Origin: an uncultured Alphaproteobacteria bacterium
GTDB lineage: Bacteria > Pseudomonadota > Alphaproteobacteria > Rs-D84
Direction: 5' to 3'
Length of the DNA stretch: 64,000 nt
Assembly: GCA_944392815.1 (NCBI GenBank)
Contig: CALXXY010000002.1
Span: 152,257-216,256 of the forward strand
The position numbers and the translations under genes are program-made. A model generated the notes under the pieces. That model ran no database searches, was not told where the DNA came from, and worked only from the letters and a program-made list of their open reading frames with translations. Numbering within the stretch: position 1 is the first letter of the stretch; every line of letters begins with the position of its first letter. Shown in pieces: positions 25,969 through 32,039 of this stretch.

Positions 25969-27738
25969 TTATCCTTTTTTGCGAATTTGAATATGAACCT
26001 CGCGCAGTTGTTTTTCTGTGACAGCACTGGGCGATCCCATCATCAAATCCTGGCCACGTTGGTTGGTTGGGAACGCGACCACAGCACGCAAATTCGGTTC
26101 GCCCAACATTATTTGAACCAATCTGTCCAAACCAAACGCACATCCACCGTGCGGTGGCGCGCCATATTGGAACGCAGTATACATACCACCGAATTTTTGT
26201 TTTACGATTTCTTCGTCATACCCAGTAATTTCAAAACAACGCAACATAATGTCCGGATTAAAATTACGCAACCCGCCACTGCAGATTTCCGCACCATTCA
26301 AAACCATATCGAATTGCGCGGCCTTGATAGACAACGGATCTTTTGTTTTTAATTCGTCCAAAGTCGCCATCGGGTACGAAAACGGATTATGGGTAAACGC
26401 CAACCCAGTCGGCGATTCTTCGTCAACCTCGAAAAATGGGAATTCTTCTATCCAGCACAGACGGAATTCTTTTTCATCGATTAATCCCAAATCTTCGCCC
26501 AACTTTGTACGTAATTTCCCGGCGGCCTTGGCTGCATTTTCCGCAGTATCACAGATAAAGAACAACGAAGAATTATCCCCTGCAATTTCATGCAGTTTTG
26601 CAATTCTGTCCGCATCTAATTTTTTGGCAACAGGACCTTTGGCCTCGGCGGCGAACACGATATATCCCAATCCGCCCAGTCCCAATTCTTTGACCGCATA
26701 GTCCCCCAATTTATCGAACCAAGAACGTGGCTTGTCCGCGCTGTTTGGCGCAGGCACTGCACGCACAACACTGCCATTGTCAATTGCATTGGCAAATATA
26801 CCAAAATCAGACCCACGGAACACATCTGTCACATCAGAAATGACAATAGGATTGCGTAAATCCGGCTTGTCCGTGCCATATTTCAACATGGCCTGTTCAA
26901 ACGGAATGTGTGGAATGTCGGCACAGATTTTTGCGTCCGGCACAAATTCACGAATGATTTGCGGCATCAAAGTATCACCAACGGCCTGGATATCCGGCAA
27001 ATCCACGAACGACATTTCCAAATCCAATTGATAAAATTCCAACAATCTGTCCGCACGCAAATCTTCGTCACGGAAACAGGGCGCAATTTGAAAATAACGA
27101 TCAAACCCAGAAATTTGCAACAATTGTTTAAATTGCTGTGGTGCCTGGGGCAACGCATAAAACATACCATGATGATTACGCGATGGCACGATAAAATCAC
27201 GTGCACCTTCGGGACTGGACGCAGTCAACACAGGCGTCTGGAATTCAGAAAATCCCATTTCCCACATTTTGTCGCGAATAAATTTAATCATGCGATTACG
27301 CATTAAAATATTGTTATGCAATGTTTCACGCCGCAAATCGATATAGCGATATTTTAAACGCAAATCTTCGGACACAGTGTCATCATCGCCAAACACCTGG
27401 AACGGCAACACATCAGAATTCGTTAACACATGCCAATCATTCACATGAATTTCGATTTCGCCGGTTGGAATTTTATCATTAACCGCATCGGCCGCACGCG
27501 CAACAACAGTACCCGTGATTTGAATCACGGATTCAGGCCGCACACGTTCCATTTCTGCATTACCACCATCAAACACGCATTGCGTAATACCGTAATTATC
27601 ACGCAAATCAACAAACAATAACGCACCATGGTCACGCTTGCGATGCACCCACCCCGACAAAGTCACAGTTTCACCAACATTTGATTTGTTTAATTCACCA
27701 CATGTATTGGTTCTGTATTTAGATTTCAACGATAACAT
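25969..27738 (-). CDS. aspS: Aspartate-tRNA ligase (probably non-discriminating Asp/Asn type)
   Basis: YRTNTCGEL, RDHGALLFVDLRD, PEGARDF, YALPQAPQQFKQLL, CFRDED, GAPPHGG. His in RDHG is typical of ND-AspRS. Start at ATG 27738 after AAGGGA. Confidence 0.97.
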   Translation of the reverse strand: MLSLKSKYRTNTCGELNKSNVGETVTLSGWVHRKRDHGALLFVDLRDNYGITQCVFDGGNAEMERVRPESVIQITGTVVARAADAVNDKIPTGEIEIHVNDWHVLTNSDVLPFQVFGDDDTVSEDLRLKYRYIDLRRETLHNNILMRNRMIKFIRDKMWEMGFSEFQTPVLTASSPEGARDFIVPSRNHHGMFYALPQAPQQFKQLLQISGFDRYFQIAPCFRDEDLRADRLLEFYQLDLEMSFVDLPDIQAVGDTLMPQIIREFVPDAKICADIPHIPFEQAMLKYGTDKPDLRNPIVISDVTDVFRGSDFGIFANAIDNGSVVRAVPAPNSADKPRSWFDKLGDYAVKELGLGGLGYIVFAAEAKGPVAKKLDADRIAKLHEIAGDNSSLFFICDTAENAAKAAGKLRTKLGEDLGLIDEKEFRLCWIEEFPFFEVDEESPTGLAFTHNPFSYPMATLDELKTKDPLSIKAAQFDMVLNGAEICSGGLRNFNPDIMLRCFEITGYDEEIVKQKFGGMYTAFQYGAPPHGGCAFGLDRLVQIMLGEPNLRAVVAFPTNQRGQDLMMGSPSAVTEKQLREVHIQIRKKG

Positions 27739-27912
27739 TTTGGTCCCTTTGTTTTTACCGGGCACCATAAACGAAAAAATCGGAAACGGCACCCATATTT
27801 AAATTTCAGGGGCGCAATGGAATCACTGCGCGGTGCCACCCTGATTTATCACTTTGATTGGGATTTGCGAACTCCGTGGTTGTCAGTCACATCATCGTCC
27901 CCGCCCCCGAAA
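27739..27912 (-). promoter_or_regulatory. T-box riboswitch (Asp specifier, ultrashort Stem I) in the aspS leader
   Basis: Minus strand antiterminator TCAGGG-[TGGCACC]-GCGCAGTG-ATTC-CATTGCGC-CCCTGA (27844-27806). Upstream K-turn hairpin GAC-GAT-GA-TGTG-ACTGACAAC-CACG-GA-GTT (27899-27870) has GAC in its loop. Confidence 0.85.
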
Positions 27913-27985
27913 AATATCAGATGTCTATACAACACTAATACAAGCTATCTAAATATCTTTTCTTAAGACATCTTACAACAGTAAG

Positions 27986-28014
27986 ATTCTATAATTAGAA
28001 TACTTGAAAAGCAA
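27986..28014 (-). promoter_or_regulatory. Candidate sigma70 promoter reading toward the T-box and aspS
   Basis: TTGCTT-N17-TAGAAT on the minus strand. Confidence 0.5.
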
Positions 28015-28046
28015 GTAATATTCAACAGTCATATACACAAACAAAA

Positions 28047-29105
28047 TTATGTTTTTAAAATATACAATAATTCACTAACATATTGTTTTTTCGTGTTTTT
28101 TTTATTGATATGACTATTATATCTCGGGTATTTTAATCTTACCACTTCAACATTACCATATTTAGATAACACAGATTTTATATCTTTTTCTGACATTATA
28201 CCTTCTGAACTATAAGATAAAATAAGATACTTATACTTTGCAGAACTAGCTATTCTATCAAGATCCTGTAATGCTGTTTTTTTATTACAAAAAGACGATT
28301 TTTGATGTTCATATCCCCTTATCCCCGTAATTCCATGTATAACAGGATTATCATACTTTGCTATTGTTTCCAATAAATGATAATTAGGTGCATATTGTCT
28401 GGCATTATACGGCGGATCTAAATACAAAATATCTGTATTTATATTTTCTAATAAAGTTAAACTATCAACATTAAATGCCATATTTTTTGACTTATTAAAT
28501 ACTAAATCAATAGGTTTAATTATAAATGGTTTTAATGCTCTGGGGTCCCATTTTTTATTAAATGCCGCATACACCCCAGATATATTGGCAAACAATCCAA
28601 CACTTTCAATCAAACAGGCCAACAAAATATAATATTCATCATCTGTTAATAAATTTTTACTTTTCCATTTTTCTATCTGAATTCGTATCGCATCTATTTT
28701 CTGTGCATTCGCATCAGACAAATACATTCTGGGAATTTTTAAATCTTTGGTTCCACCAACAGAGTAATTATTATAAATAAACCCAGAAACAGGTTCCAAC
28801 TTGTTCAAATACGCAAGAACTATATCTAACGGAGATTCTAACAATACCTTCTCAGCTTTTGCTATTTCTGGTATAATTTGTGCGAATTTTGGTTCCGAGT
28901 TATTTACAATATATGCCCGTTGCAAACAATACGATAAATATAAAAAATCGCAAGAGGTTACCGAATAGCCTTTTCTTTTAAAGAATTTTGCAACACTGGC
29001 AGTTCCGCTAAAAAAATCAAAGAATGTTTTGCCACTGACATTTTTTTGTTCCAAAGCCAGATATATTTTATCAAGCAAACTTTCTTTGTTTCCTATAAAC
29101 CTCAT
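28047..29105 (-). CDS. N6-adenine DNA methyltransferase (D12/FokI-like class)
   Basis: MRFIGNK, DFFSGTASVA (motif I), LYLDPPYNARQY (motif IV), YHLLETIA. Confidence 0.92.
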   Translation of the reverse strand: MRFIGNKESLLDKIYLALEQKNVSGKTFFDFFSGTASVAKFFKRKGYSVTSCDFLYLSYCLQRAYIVNNSEPKFAQIIPEIAKAEKVLLESPLDIVLAYLNKLEPVSGFIYNNYSVGGTKDLKIPRMYLSDANAQKIDAIRIQIEKWKSKNLLTDDEYYILLACLIESVGLFANISGVYAAFNKKWDPRALKPFIIKPIDLVFNKSKNMAFNVDSLTLLENINTDILYLDPPYNARQYAPNYHLLETIAKYDNPVIHGITGIRGYEHQKSSFCNKKTALQDLDRIASSAKYKYLILSYSSEGIMSEKDIKSVLSKYGNVEVVRLKYPRYNSHINKKNTKKQYVSELLYILKT

Positions 29106-30060
29106 ATTCTGACTCTTTTGTAGACAACAATGACTCGTTCGCTATATTACGACATTCTGGGATATAATTAGTTATCAAAACTTCTCGGGTTGCGGTTTTA
29201 TCACGTATCTTTAAATGATAATTTGAATTCGAATAATCCATATCTATCTCTGTCACACAATAATCAGAATGCAACATCAGCCAATTCATTAAAATCTCAT
29301 TGACTCTACCTTTGTGCATTAAAACATTCGACAAAGCAAACCTAACACCTTTTCTTGTCAAATTATCCAATAAATTTAATAATTTTAATTCTTCCGACTC
29401 ATTCCAACCCTTGAACCCACGTTTACCATCGTTATACGTGCCAGTCGTTATAAGATACGGCGGATCTGCATACACAAAATCACTTGTCCCCAGGCCGGAC
29501 ACATCGAATACAGCAAAATCTTTATCACTAAACTCTATATCAATTTTGTGCAACCTGTCTATAAACGCCAGTAAATTTTTTTCCATACATGGATTATAAG
29601 CACTTCTATTTTTGCCAAATGGATTATTAAATTCATGCGAATTATTAAATCTGATTTGATGATTAAATGAATATGCTACTAAAACAAATAAGTCCAACGG
29701 ATTTTTATATTTATTATATAATAATCTTAATTCGTTATATCCGGACACATTGGTCAAAGACAAATCAAATTCCGATATTCTGCCATATATATGATTTAAA
29801 ACATCTTGTTGTGATAATTTTTTTAAAACACTATACAGATCAACAAGATACGTTAAATTATCATTTAATATAATTTTCCCAGCGGAAACATTTACCCCAA
29901 CATTTCCACCGCCCGCAAATAAATCAACAAAACAATTTATGTTATCCGGAAACAACGGCACCAATTGGGGTAACAGTTTATATTTACCACCTATGTAGTT
30001 CAATGGTGACTTTACAAAAACATCTGCTGTTCTACTCACTTCCTGCCGCCGCTGTTTCAA
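29071..30060 (-). CDS. Dam-family (D12) N6-adenine DNA methyltransferase
   Basis: KSPLNYIGGKYKLLPQL, DLFAGGGNV, FVYADPPY, FALSN, EVLITNY; start codon uncertain. Confidence 0.93.
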   Translation of the reverse strand: MKQRRQEVSRTADVFVKSPLNYIGGKYKLLPQLVPLFPDNINCFVDLFAGGGNVGVNVSAGKIILNDNLTYLVDLYSVLKKLSQQDVLNHIYGRISEFDLSLTNVSGYNELRLLYNKYKNPLDLFVLVAYSFNHQIRFNNSHEFNNPFGKNRSAYNPCMEKNLLAFIDRLHKIDIEFSDKDFAVFDVSGLGTSDFVYADPPYLITTGTYNDGKRGFKGWNESEELKLLNLLDNLTRKGVRFALSNVLMHKGRVNEILMNWLMLHSDYCVTEIDMDYSNSNYHLKIRDKTATREVLITNYIPECRNIANESLLSTKESEYEVYRKQRKFA

Positions 30061-31432
30061 TTGCTTTTTTGATTAAACTTGGGGGATTTGGCCCCAAAAT
30101 CAAATCTCCATTTTCATTTAACAAAAATCCGACATCCAGTTCAACAACTTTCGTATTATTACTTCCATATAAAACAACCGTCCTGACTGTTTGAATCCCA
30201 GGATAATATTTATTAACATACTCTTCATCAAACGCATCATACAGTTTTATTTGATTCACCCCATTGATTCTTTTGGAATATTTTTTTCCTTCTATTTCAA
30301 CAATAAACCCAGATTGCACATCAAACATAACCAAATCAGGAATATGTATAATTTTTGCTTTATTTCCTGACTTATATTCTACCCTGTTTTCATATTTTTG
30401 CAATGGAACAGGCCCGTCATTTGGGGTCAAAAAATACCCTTTTTCACACCCAGCATGATTTTCAAAAATTAATTTACCATTTGCATAATTTTCAATAGCT
30501 AAATGTAAAAATATCGTTGCCAGTTTTTCACCACTATTCTCATAATGCCAGTATTCTTTTTCTATATCTGCCTTTGGTACATCAATCCCATCTAGTTTAA
30601 TATTTAACTTATTCGCTATTTGAACAAATTTATTGTTTTTACCCACATGTTTTTGTTCCAAACCATGTTTTGTTATAATAATATCTTTATCCCAACCTAA
30701 TTTCCGTAACACGCACGAAATAGCTGACAGTGCCCCTATATTCGGATCATGCGCTAAACTACCATTTTTATATAATCTGCCGGAAATTTCTATTCGGTCA
30801 TCTTTTTTTGTAATACTAATTGGTACATTAGTCACAGGCGCATTTCTCATACACGATTTAAAATCTATTAATTCGTCTACAGAACTAAATGGAGCATATC
30901 GTTCTTTAATTATTTTTTCATCTACTACCTGTATATCTACACCCATAGTCAGCAATAATCGTGTTCCAAATATATTCGTTTGTGTTGGTTTCTTTGACGG
31001 CGTTATCTGTAAATTGTACAGCATAATTTTACGAATACCTGGATACACATAATTTATATATACAAATTTTGTACACCTTTGATATATAGCAGTATTACGA
31101 CTTTCACTATCATCTGTTTTGGTTTCTTCTATCGCACATACAGGTATATCATCTAATTTTGGTTCTGTATCCTGATAAAATACTAAAAAATCAACAAAAC
31201 TAGATTTTCCAGATACAATTTTAATAAATACGTCACTTACCACACAATTTGTAAAGCCAACCAATGTGTATACAAATGTAAATTTACCGTCTTTTAATAT
31301 CGGGACTATTCTTGTATCTTTATTAAAAACAGTATCACCACAAACACCTTGTAATATTTTACATACCACAGCCACCTTTGGCCTTTCTTCGGTCAATATC
31401 CAAACACAAGATTTCTTATACGCTTTACACAT
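30032..31432 (-). CDS. Putative type II(S) restriction endonuclease
   Basis: First gene of the MTase operon; two candidate PD-(D/E)xK sites (VDFL...IEETK and IPDL...EIEGKK). Confidence 0.65.
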   Translation of the reverse strand: MCKAYKKSCVWILTEERPKVAVVCKILQGVCGDTVFNKDTRIVPILKDGKFTFVYTLVGFTNCVVSDVFIKIVSGKSSFVDFLVFYQDTEPKLDDIPVCAIEETKTDDSESRNTAIYQRCTKFVYINYVYPGIRKIMLYNLQITPSKKPTQTNIFGTRLLLTMGVDIQVVDEKIIKERYAPFSSVDELIDFKSCMRNAPVTNVPISITKKDDRIEISGRLYKNGSLAHDPNIGALSAISCVLRKLGWDKDIIITKHGLEQKHVGKNNKFVQIANKLNIKLDGIDVPKADIEKEYWHYENSGEKLATIFLHLAIENYANGKLIFENHAGCEKGYFLTPNDGPVPLQKYENRVEYKSGNKAKIIHIPDLVMFDVQSGFIVEIEGKKYSKRINGVNQIKLYDAFDEEYVNKYYPGIQTVRTVVLYGSNNTKVVELDVGFLLNENGDLILGPNPPSLIKKAIETAAAGSE

Positions 31433-31532
31433 GCCGTTTCCTCTTCAAAAATATTATAACATTCTTCAATACTCATAACACATACAAGTAAAAACAACCA
31501 AGCATAAATTTATAACGCCACACTCTATCATC

Positions 31533-31976
31533 ATGCAACAAATTCAAAAATTAAATGAGCAAAAATCTAAGATGGAGTTGGAATGCAGCATTGAAAAAAA
31601 AGATGATATGCCATTTGACCAGGCACTAGCTACAGTATTGTACTTCGTCACCGACCTTGCTGGTATATGGTCAAAGGCAACTCTACAAGAAAAAAGAACC
31701 ATTTTATCAATAGTTTTTACAGATAATTTATATTATTCAAAAGATAACAAGTTCCAAAATCCGCCAATTTCACCAATATTTCAAATATCAGATGAACTTA
31801 AACATTCAATCACAAACATAACCGAAATATATAATTTTTCAGACAAAGTCCCAGATCGTGAAAAAAATGACAAAATAAAAGATGAAAAAAATACAAAATC
31901 TGGGACTGGCTGTGACCCGCACAAATCAAATGATTTTATAACAAAAATGGGGGTAAACAATCATCTGGTGCCCTAA
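31533..31976 (+). pseudogene. Probable C-terminal remnant of an integrase/large serine recombinase
   Basis: Coiled coil followed by W..A...EKR.IL..VF...L.Y pattern; the ORF runs into the tRNA-Thr 3' end and has no catalytic N-terminus. Confidence 0.5.
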
Positions 31977-32039
31977 GCAAGAATCGGACTTGCGACTCGT
32001 CCTTACCAAGGACGTGTTTTACCACTAGACTATTAGGGC
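31966..32039 (-). tRNA. tRNA-Thr(GGT)
   Basis: Reverse complement GCCCTAA...CGTCC-TTGGTAA-GGACG...GCAAG-TCCGATT-CTTGC-TTAGGGC-ACCA. Confidence 0.93.

Follow-up and report, generated by a model that had tools for sequence, protein, structure and literature searches.

Can a T-box riboswitch be stripped of most of its known domains and still read a tRNA, and can such an element occur in an alphaproteobacterium? The question is raised by the leader of aspS, the aspartyl-tRNA synthetase gene, in the genome of a member of Candidatus Enterousia, gut Alphaproteobacteria of the order Rs-D84. The gene lies on the minus strand of a 64,000-nucleotide stretch, here called the window (assembly GCA_944392815.1, contig CALXXY010000002.1, forward-strand positions 152,257 to 216,256). 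A first-pass annotation, made from the letters of the window, had proposed that the aspS leader carries a T-box of new, minimal architecture. That proposal is supported by a set of conserved and covarying leaders and can be taken further, in that Stem III is absent too. Our reading, to which we assign a probability of about 0.7, is that the leader holds a functional, strongly reduced descendant of a T-box riboswitch which controls aspS translation.

The conserved element in the aspS leader

The gene, its leader and the parts of the putative sensing domain are as follows, in window coordinates.

25969-27738, minus strand: aspS, a bacterial-type aspartyl-tRNA synthetase (AspRS) of 589 residues with its ATG at 27738, scoring 744.7 bits against NF001750 (cut-off 443)
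27739-27915, minus strand: the whole aspS leader, 177 nt before the ATG; the alignment to 79 related leaders begins to match at about 27915
27860-27908, minus strand: Stem I, consisting of outer helix, internal loop, basal helix, kink-turn (K-turn), upper stem and specifier loop
27908-27906 with 27862-27860, minus strand: outer helix GGG/CCC, its pairs 68-79% paired
27902-27897 with 27872-27867, minus strand: basal helix, 90.5% paired, six of six pairs doubly changed
27892-27896, minus strand: bulged strand of the K-turn, GAU (27896-27894), G27893 and A27892, with G27874 and A27873 opposite
27875-27891, minus strand: upper stem (27891-27888 with 27878-27875) and nine-nucleotide terminal loop ACUGACAAC (27887-27879)
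27882-27884, minus strand: specifier codon GAC (Asp), complementary to the GUC anticodon of tRNA-Asp from the same genome
27848-27858, minus strand: hairpin AUCA-AAG-UGAU, earlier called Stem III, outside the conserved element
27845-27855, minus strand: purine-rich single-strand linker AAAGUGAUAAA (consensus AAGUUAUAAA), without a hairpin, recognised by its conservation in the leaders
27806-27844, minus strand: antiterminator or anti-sequestrator, made up of helix A1, a 7-nt bulge and helix A2, recognised by alignment to the RF00230 core and by covariation
27844-27839 with 27811-27806, minus strand: helix A1, UCAGGG/CCCUGA, 93.7% of cells paired, with double changes
27838-27832, minus strand: bulge UGGCACC, 7 nt, invariant in 78 of 78 leaders
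27831-27824 with 27819-27812, minus strand: helix A2, GCGCAGUG/CAUUGCGC, with loop AUUC (27823-27820), 97.8% paired, with double changes

Eighty related aspS loci were fetched, 79 of them with upstream sequence, the eightieth (L108) being cut at its 5' end. The core GGTGGCACCGCG is found 63-114 nt ahead of the aspS start in all 79. These loci provide 78 distinct leaders, to which the counts below refer. They were aligned with MAFFT without structure guidance and submitted to RNAalifold, which unaided predicts the basal stem (6 bp), the upper stem, A1 and A2, with double changes at 12 of the 20 pairs. Helix pairing was then expressed relative to a structure drawn by us on the trimmed alignment, A3, with slid structures and 500 shuffles as controls. 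The drawn structure pairs 86.0% of cells, compared with 36-48% in the slid controls, and none of the 500 shuffles reaches the observed covariation score. Compensatory changes keep the helices intact across species at 80-94% AspRS identity, while spacers and loops drift. We conclude from this comparison of leaders that the element is evidently real and conserved under selection.

The 3' half carries the hallmarks of a T-box antiterminator. The coordinates proposed for it, UCAGGG/CCCUGA around the bulge UGGCACC at 27838-27832 and followed by the A2 helix, are all right on the minus strand. The core GGG-UGGCACC-GCGC...GCGC-CCC is identical in 78 of 78 leaders, the outermost A1 positions vary in a compensatory manner, and cmscan places AGGG-UGGCACC-GCGC on the antiterminator core of the Rfam T-box model RF00230 with high posterior probability. 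Across the host genome, a search with a 12-nt core pattern allowing one mismatch was uninformative, with 33 matches compared with 49 in the reversed control. A stricter core motif occurs only at this locus and at a single site in contig C3; that site is within an open reading frame (ORF) which we take to encode a ybgC-like thioesterase.

The 5' half is built around the hairpin GAC-GAU-GA-UGUG-ACUGACAAC-CACG-GA-GUU, which had been located at 27899-27870 with GAC at 27884-27882, and these positions are confirmed. The first-pass annotation had named a lack of conservation or covariation of this K-turn hairpin and its loop in orthologous leaders as grounds for abandoning its proposal; both are conserved and covarying in the 78 leaders. 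Beneath the hairpin there is a long, covarying basal helix that had not been described. The window's own copy has one G-G mismatch, at 27901/27868. Leaders from Enterousia proper have the outer GGG/CCC helix and an A-rich internal loop; in distant members a continuous helix of up to ~14 bp is formed. In the K-turn, the G and the A of the bulged strand are each present in 78 of 78 leaders, as is the A of the opposite strand, where the G is found in 77. The position following the G-A pairs is U-G in 66 leaders and C-C in eight, and a non-Watson-Crick arrangement here is usual in K-turns. The K-turn sequence pattern is present in 77 of the 78 leaders, and the helices flanking it on both sides covary. 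The 4-bp upper stem is 96.1% paired, and its pair 22/36 is G-C in 39 sequences and A-U in 33.

The terminal loop has the consensus A-Y-U-[G/A]AC-R-A-C (Y 78/78, U 76/78, R 78/78, A 75/78). It is closed by an A-C mismatch in 75 leaders and by a Watson-Crick pair in none, and its inner seven positions match the signature of the 7-nt anticodon loop, Y-U-NNN-R-A. The triplet at its centre is GAC in 75 leaders and AAC in three, and it is GAC in a further 30 of 30 loci. Its second and third positions are invariant, its first is only ever G or A, and a purine follows it in all 78. The switch to AAC, an Asn codon, in some relatives goes beyond what had been noticed before. Judging from the loop signature, the triplet would be presented on a U-turn and would meet the anticodon loop of the tRNA as a kissing complex. 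According to the available text of PMC4138328, which cites Grosjean 1976, anticodon-anticodon complexes are ~7.7 kcal/mol more stable than stacking predicts. The likeness to those complexes (Grosjean, Soll and Crothers 1976, in PMC4138328) is that a 7-nt loop with a U-turn signature offers three bases to an anticodon loop, with a stability far above that of the bare triplet; the difference is that they were formed by two tRNAs in vitro and involved no regulatory RNA, while in the aspS loop the U-turn is deduced from sequence.

Codon and bulge agree on the tRNA. As the first-pass annotation had pointed out, aspS lies downstream, GAC is in the loop and UGGC matches the discriminator base G73 of tRNA-Asp. 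The host tRNA-Asp(GUC) and tRNA-Asn(GUU) both have G73 and an encoded CCA, so both fit the bulge. UGGC is constant, and the lineage holds no other amino-acid class, so there is no variation in the N of UGGN to compare. A search of the host genome revealed no asnS over the model cut-off (best score 127 against 342.6 bits), and gatB is present (487 bits). From this it follows that AspRS probably charges both tRNA-Asp and tRNA-Asn, with Asn-tRNA probably made by a non-discriminating AspRS and an amidotransferase. This indirect pathway is well established. With one synthetase serving both tRNAs, GAC and AAC are both meaningful specifiers for aspS, while the discriminator base stays G. The 127-bit match is a class II synthetase-like ORF of 351 residues, matched in its catalytic part alone; the coordinates in the host's own genome (G000) relevant to asnS and gatB are C1:208720-209652 and C2:85300-86793.

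Between the two halves, the tiny Stem III reported earlier is physically present as a hairpin in the window, but its pairing across the leaders, 49.5% of cells, is at the level of the slid controls (36-48%), and we have rejected it as a chance hairpin of one genome. The element is therefore even more reduced than was first proposed. What is conserved here is the single-stranded linker: A87, A94 and A95 never vary, and conservation is at least 90% at A88, G89, T90 and A92. In the cmscan alignment to RF00230, its consensus AAGU[U/G]AUAAA falls on the purine string 5'-RRRxG...AA-3' on either side of Stem III, which is itself skipped as a deletion. Only ~17 nt separate the Stem I helix from A1, and RNAalifold predicts no helix among them that could represent Stem II or its S-turn. 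The F-box CCGUUA of the IIA/B pseudoknot is not found in the minimal leaders and is present in most leaders of sister lineages. There is likewise no distal platform of AG bulge and distal loop to stack on the tRNA elbow, Stem I ending in the specifier loop after 4 bp and most distal positions being deleted by cmscan. The distance from codon to bulge is 44-51 nt across the minimal leaders (~46 nt in the window) versus 74-151 nt in their fuller relatives, which bears out the earlier statement that the element has neither a long Stem I nor a Stem II. We infer that the roles of Stem II and Stem III have passed to the purine linker and the basal helix.

Expression platform and proposed mechanism

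No intrinsic terminator was found in the aspS leader. Between the antiterminator and the start codon there are three further conserved segments.

27787-27794, minus strand: element A, GGGUGCCG, at least 90% conserved, able to pair with the GCGCCC 3' strand, with element B or with the whole bulge
27760-27766, minus strand: element B, GGUGCCC, the 3' strand of the A:B hairpin and a candidate anti-Shine-Dalgarno sequence
27742-27750, minus strand: Shine-Dalgarno (SD) region AAAGGGACC, element C, conserved, 3 nt before the ATG at 27738

Together with the halves of the antiterminator, these segments form a chain, each link of which is complementary to its neighbours. Mean duplex energies are -14.2 kcal/mol for A with B, -11.5 kcal/mol for the antiterminator 3' strand with A, -7.8 kcal/mol for B with the SD and -7.2 kcal/mol for the antiterminator 3' strand with the SD. 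The pairing of A with B covaries clearly, none of 2000 permutations giving a sum as low as that observed. In five of 11 lineages with a variant SD, the lineage's own B fits its own SD better than do nearly all others. The window folds into two nearly isoenergetic states, ON at -38.4 versus OFF at -39.7 kcal/mol. Forcing the antiterminator to form makes the SD more accessible in the models of 76 of 78 leaders, with the mean going from 0.19 to 0.40; in the window, the modelled probability that the G-run of the SD is unpaired goes from 0.07 to 0.79. The A:B hairpin is very stable, and few minimum-energy folds are without it; leaders of the L058 group reach their minimum energy in precisely the OFF state of the relay described below. 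The ACC that follows the G-run of the SD is conserved without a reason in ribosome binding. These folding models predict that control of aspS is translational and is exerted by SD sequestration.

In L060, L111 and most of the fuller leaders there is no A or B, and the antiterminator is joined directly to the SD. The A:B hairpin thus seems to have been inserted later, with the effect of a double inversion of the signal.

The mechanism that we propose is as follows. The 5' domain would act as a single hairpin whose loop offers GAC (or AAC) to the anticodon of tRNA-Asp (or tRNA-Asn) in a loop-loop kiss. Some 46 nt downstream, the bulge sequence 5'-UGGC-3' would pair with GCCA at that tRNA's free 3' end, and this pairing would stabilise helices A1 and A2. 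In the ON state, the 3' strand of A1/A2, GCGCCCCUGA, would be occupied, A would pair with B, the SD would be free and aspS would be translated. When uncharged tRNA is lacking, the 3' strand may pair with A, releasing B to pair with the SD in a relay that blocks translation; alternatively, the 3' strand may pair with the SD directly across a standing A:B hairpin, with the same outcome. The invariance of the 3' strand makes the relay inseparable from the direct model in which A:B is always formed, and we have kept both as OFF states. An AspRS that charges both tRNAs would explain why the specifier is GAC or AAC with a constant G discriminator. That the element binds tRNA and discriminates between its charged and uncharged forms is what we infer from this arrangement of contacts.

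In its strongest form the proposal is that a domain of ~105 nt senses tRNA by two contacts only, the anticodon kiss and four pairs to NCCA, that these are spaced by the K-turn and a rigid basal helix, that the output passes through the five-element relay, and that Asp or Asn is chosen by a single G/A change. We give this even odds. If true, the element would be the smallest natural tRNA-sensing riboswitch, with no elbow contact, S-turn, pseudoknot or Stem III. Parts supposed to be indispensable would then be replaceable, perhaps by an unbroken purine strand, together with the basal helix and a pre-organised loop.

Several other features of the platform were observed. GGUGCCG within A (27794-27787) is complementary to the whole of the bulge at 27838-27832, with six Watson-Crick pairs and one U-G, and element A could occupy the site of the tRNA 3' end as a built-in decoy. 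The two C residues of A are conserved in some groups though dispensable for the A:B hairpin. The G-rich 5' end of the leader (27909-27903; consensus GGGCGC in Enterousia proper) is complementary to the antiterminator 3' strand GCGCCC (27815-27808). When the sensing domain of the window is folded as a single sequence, this pairing is part of the minimum-energy structure; in more distant members it is not kept. The first codons of aspS, AUGUUAUCU (27737-27730), are nearly invariant, synonymous positions included, perhaps through codon bias alone. Many of the minimum-energy folds pair UGUUAUC with the T-box sequence GGUGGCA (27840-27834), three of the seven pairs being G-U, and such a pairing would hide the start codon too.

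Relatives, host and locus

The distribution of the element was surveyed using R1, a covariance model of the sensing domain, in 121 sampled genomes of the window's family and 29 of the other families of the order. R1 matches 118 of the 121, six of these at less than 60 bits; two of the six (22 and 26 bits) are fuller T-boxes, and the window's family has fuller leaders in G118 and G026. In the other families there are matches in four of 29 genomes, all of them weak (26-33 bits). Each genome has one true copy, with two weak extras beyond that. The second match in G116 (L150) was discarded as a false positive, as it lies inside a coding region and has no UGGN bulge. The aspS start is 94-111 nt past the core in 30 of 30 loci, and seven of the eight weak R1 matches examined are leaders of aspS or of an archaeal-type, non-discriminating aspS.

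The fuller leaders are L143-L149 (genomes G010, G001, G015, G005, G026, G118 and G096) and L154 (G255). In L143-L149 a Stem II is combined with the K-turn, stem and GAC or AAC loop of the minimal element. What the fuller T-boxes share with the minimal element is the K-turn, the 4-bp stem, a loop of the form C-U/A-[G/A]AC-A, the UGGC bulge and the downstream gene family; several are without the Stem III hairpin and have the same AAGU..AA linker. What sets them apart is the Stem II with S-turn-like motifs (AGAA/UAGAA), in most cases the F-box CCGUUA, and an antiterminator that in most is joined directly to the SD. Some retain Stem III, and in L143, L145 and L146 the hairpin seems also to be missing. 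Their architecture, an ultrashort Stem I with a Stem II, is otherwise described for actinobacterial ileS. Against RF00230, L143-L149 score 32-52 bits and the whole set, L154 included, 32-56 bits, all below the Rfam cut-off. A wider sample, one genome from each of 150 other alphaproteobacterial families, gave one further aspS T-box, also of the fuller type (L154, in the 1.1-Mb genome G255), which sits behind a perfect TTGACA-17-TATAAT promoter.

Outgroup comparison with the fuller aspS T-boxes of sister lineages suggests that an ultrashort Stem I combined with a Stem II is the ancestral state in this group, and that the Enterousia leaders probably lost their Stem II domain. The earlier description of the host as an alphaproteobacterium is correct, the closest AspRS sequences coming from Candidatus Enterousia and uncultured metagenome-assembled genomes of gut Alphaproteobacteria (80-94% identity over 589 residues). 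The lineage that it called unexpected is not isolated: sister families of the same order and one other alphaproteobacterial family carry fuller aspS T-boxes.

One genome of the same genus, G096, has both forms. A minimal GAC element (L125) lies ahead of its bacterial-type aspS, and a fuller AAC T-box (L149) lies ahead of a 437-residue aspartate--tRNA(Asn) ligase (NF003483, 451 bits). The two types of AspRS gene in G096 are each preceded by a separate T-box variant, one with an Asp and the other with an Asn codon.

The host genome comprises 927 kb in 18 contigs, with ~45% G+C and 97% completeness, and has only one T-box-like element. At the Rfam gathering level, five tRNAs and no T-box are found in the whole window, and no T-box is found genome-wide. 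NCBI taxonomy lists Candidatus Enterousia under Alphaproteobacteria incertae sedis; the available text of a 2025 paper (PMC12306168) assigns it to the uncultured order Rs-D84, all of whose members have reduced genomes.

In many relatives, the 3' end of tRNA-Thr(GGU) lies 10-15 nt ahead of the aspS leader. This leaves no room for a promoter, and in those relatives the leader is probably co-transcribed with the tRNA. The contigs of other strains part from the window exactly at 27915 and continue into the 3' end of tRNA-Thr. Contigs from two metatranscriptome libraries reach this 3' end (X5, covering 27761-27915, and X6, covering 27841-27915); they derive from strains in which tRNA-Thr abuts the leader, may reflect DNA carry-over and are uninformative on starts, ends and levels. 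In the host genome, ~4 kb is inserted exactly at the junction of tRNA-Thr and leader (27916-31965), tRNA-Thr(GGU) itself being at 31966-32039. The insert has genes on the minus strand at 28047-29105, 29071-30060 and 30032-31432, the products being two D12-class N6-adenine DNA methyltransferases and a protein of 466 residues that matched no Pfam family. The insert resembles a restriction-modification island beside a tRNA gene.

Alternative explanations and significance

According to the available text of a 2020 review (PMC7583486), every T-box has a Stem I, a Stem II domain may or may not be present, and the discriminator formed by Stem III and the antiterminator is essential, with a core architecture essentially identical across known members. 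It calls Stem II essential once Stem I is truncated, reports no appreciable tRNA binding by an antiterminator without Stem III and attributes the steric sensing of the 3'-aminoacyl group mainly to a G-U pair at the base of A2.

A number of observations weigh against a functional T-box that acts on translation. The element lacks parts that the available text of this review calls necessary, and the G-U wobble that serves there as steric sensor is replaced: the A2 closing pair beside the bulge is G-C in 77 of 77 distinct rows, the U of the RF00230 model being aligned to C. Charge discrimination may accordingly be weak or work differently. The comparison with RF00230 that the first-pass annotation had suggested aligns the antiterminator to the core of the model, but the total score is 24.1 bits (E 0.002 on 501 nt), well below the gathering cut-off of 93. 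Single-sequence folding is no better than shuffles, with z-scores of -0.79 and -0.46. A scan of the minus strand for sigma-70-like promoters found none; a weak TTAGAT-17-TATAGA can be read by eye at 27952-27924, below the criteria of the scan. As to the platform, B and the SD covary only modestly, with 24 of 2000 permutations as low in a test uncorrected for relatedness, and in two of the 11 variant-SD lineages (L088 and L056) the lineage's own B fits worse than non-cognate pairs. The ON fold, with antiterminator and A:B formed, is within 1 kcal/mol of the minimum without tRNA in 36 of 78 leaders, and the mean accessibility of the SD G-run reaches only 0.40 even when the antiterminator is enforced. 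Finally, the antiterminator 3' strand is invariant and offers no covariation for its pairings with A or the SD.

Some of these points would be accommodated if the element bound tRNA-Asp and tRNA-Asn without regard to charging, reporting tRNA abundance or availability or using the tRNA as a folding cofactor. The G-C pair at the base of A2 is what one would then expect to find, as is the absence of Stem III, whose backbone bend is said in the available text of PMC7583486 to reject the 2'-aminoacyl group. We consider this unlikely. The string of purines that flanks an ordinary Stem III has been kept as a conserved sequence, the 7-nt bulge with its ACC is invariant, and a sensor of total tRNA would give a synthetase gene no obvious feedback. 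Moreover, fuller relatives that have Stem III are often G-C at the same place (L147 and L154), so that this pair may be tolerated. It is less likely again that tRNA is sensed but the output is Rho-dependent termination, RNase cleavage or mRNA stability. The limited exposure of the SD in the ON model and the great stability of the A:B hairpin would suit such an output, and in the many relatives where the leader directly follows tRNA-Thr, processing of the RNA at its 5' end must presumably occur. No intrinsic terminator was found, however, the SD region and element B covary, the ACC past the G-run is conserved with no call from ribosome binding, and in the short forms L060 and L111 the SD alone lies downstream of the antiterminator.

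Loss of Stem II, IIA/B, Stem III and the distal part of Stem I in a lineage with strongly reduced genomes, together with a score below the Rfam threshold, might also be taken as signs of decay, in which tRNA binding has been lost and the relic persists as a constitutive, structured 5' untranslated region. The pattern of conservation makes this improbable: the positions that would contact tRNA are the best conserved (the bulge and codon positions 2 and 3 in 78 of 78), the first codon position is restricted to G and A, which specify the two substrates of a non-discriminating AspRS, compensatory changes keep helices whose spacers and loops drift, and the element is kept in 118 of 121 genomes of ~0.9 Mb. 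An operator for autoregulation by AspRS, in which the hairpin mimics the anticodon arm of a tRNA, has a precedent in the thrS operator of E. coli, and the loop ahead of this synthetase gene does have the formal anticodon-loop signature. What AspRS recognises is the anticodon GUC, and the loop bears the codon GAC instead; on this ground we have rejected tRNA mimicry as highly improbable; the downstream half is moreover a T-box antiterminator with a bulge complementary to the tRNA 3' end, and the fuller homologues are ordinary T-boxes. The element is best regarded as a new minimal T-box variant, and probably one that acts on translation.

Among described systems, the element is closest in several respects to the actinobacterial ileS T-boxes (Mycobacterium, Nocardia). 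As described in PMC7583486 and PMC7778990, their Stem I is very short, starts from a K-turn and ends in a loop that holds the specifier; they have no distal double T-loop platform for the elbow, and they show the order A1, 7-nt UGGN bulge, A2, with SD sequestration (here predicted) and not a terminator. Stem III, the S-turn of Stem II and the IIA/B pseudoknot, which the review calls essential in this context, are all retained there, whereas the aspS element is without all three. It has a long covarying helix below the K-turn, a GAC or AAC specifier, an extra A:B hairpin between antiterminator and SD, and an alphaproteobacterial host. Class II of the T-box database TBDB is defined, in the available description by which we compared it, by an ultrashort Stem I with Stem II, IIA/B and Stem III in Actinobacteria; of these the aspS element has only the ultrashort Stem I. 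The available accounts of the glyQS T-boxes of Bacilli describe them as the known natural class without Stem II, with a short linker from Stem I to the 3' domain. Those elements end in a terminator, possess a Stem III, read a G+C-rich GGC specifier and have a long Stem I with an elbow platform, none of which is present here. The aspS element has kept the two contacts that read sequence, and the K-turn; everything else has been dropped or changed. On paper it works like a T-box, but several features by which the family is currently defined are missing from it.

An older survey placed proteobacterial T-boxes only ahead of leuA in Geobacter and Pelobacter, two deltaproteobacteria (PMC2494555). 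Our literature search, which covered few subscription journals and no supplements, found no T-box described in Alphaproteobacteria or Enterousia and none without both Stem II and Stem III. According to the available text of PMC7778990, TBDB ran its translational (class II) model in Actinobacteria only and the Rfam model elsewhere. With an Rfam score of 24 bits, the element would have been missed, and current annotation pipelines will miss others that score so far below the Rfam threshold.

T-boxes are a model case of one RNA reading another, and the structural picture of how they do so rests on three contacts and accessory domains. A version without Stem II and Stem III, conserved in more than 100 species, offers a direct test of the minimum needed for tRNA recognition and charge sensing, and its interest lies in how strongly it may bind, and whether it may still sense charging, when Stem II, Stem III and the G-U sensor are all missing. 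If functional, the element would provide a compact natural scaffold for engineered tRNA sensors, and with its fuller relatives from sister lineages it would form a stepwise natural series of domain loss. It would also extend T-box regulation into the Alphaproteobacteria, where one further case came to light in the 150 other families sampled.

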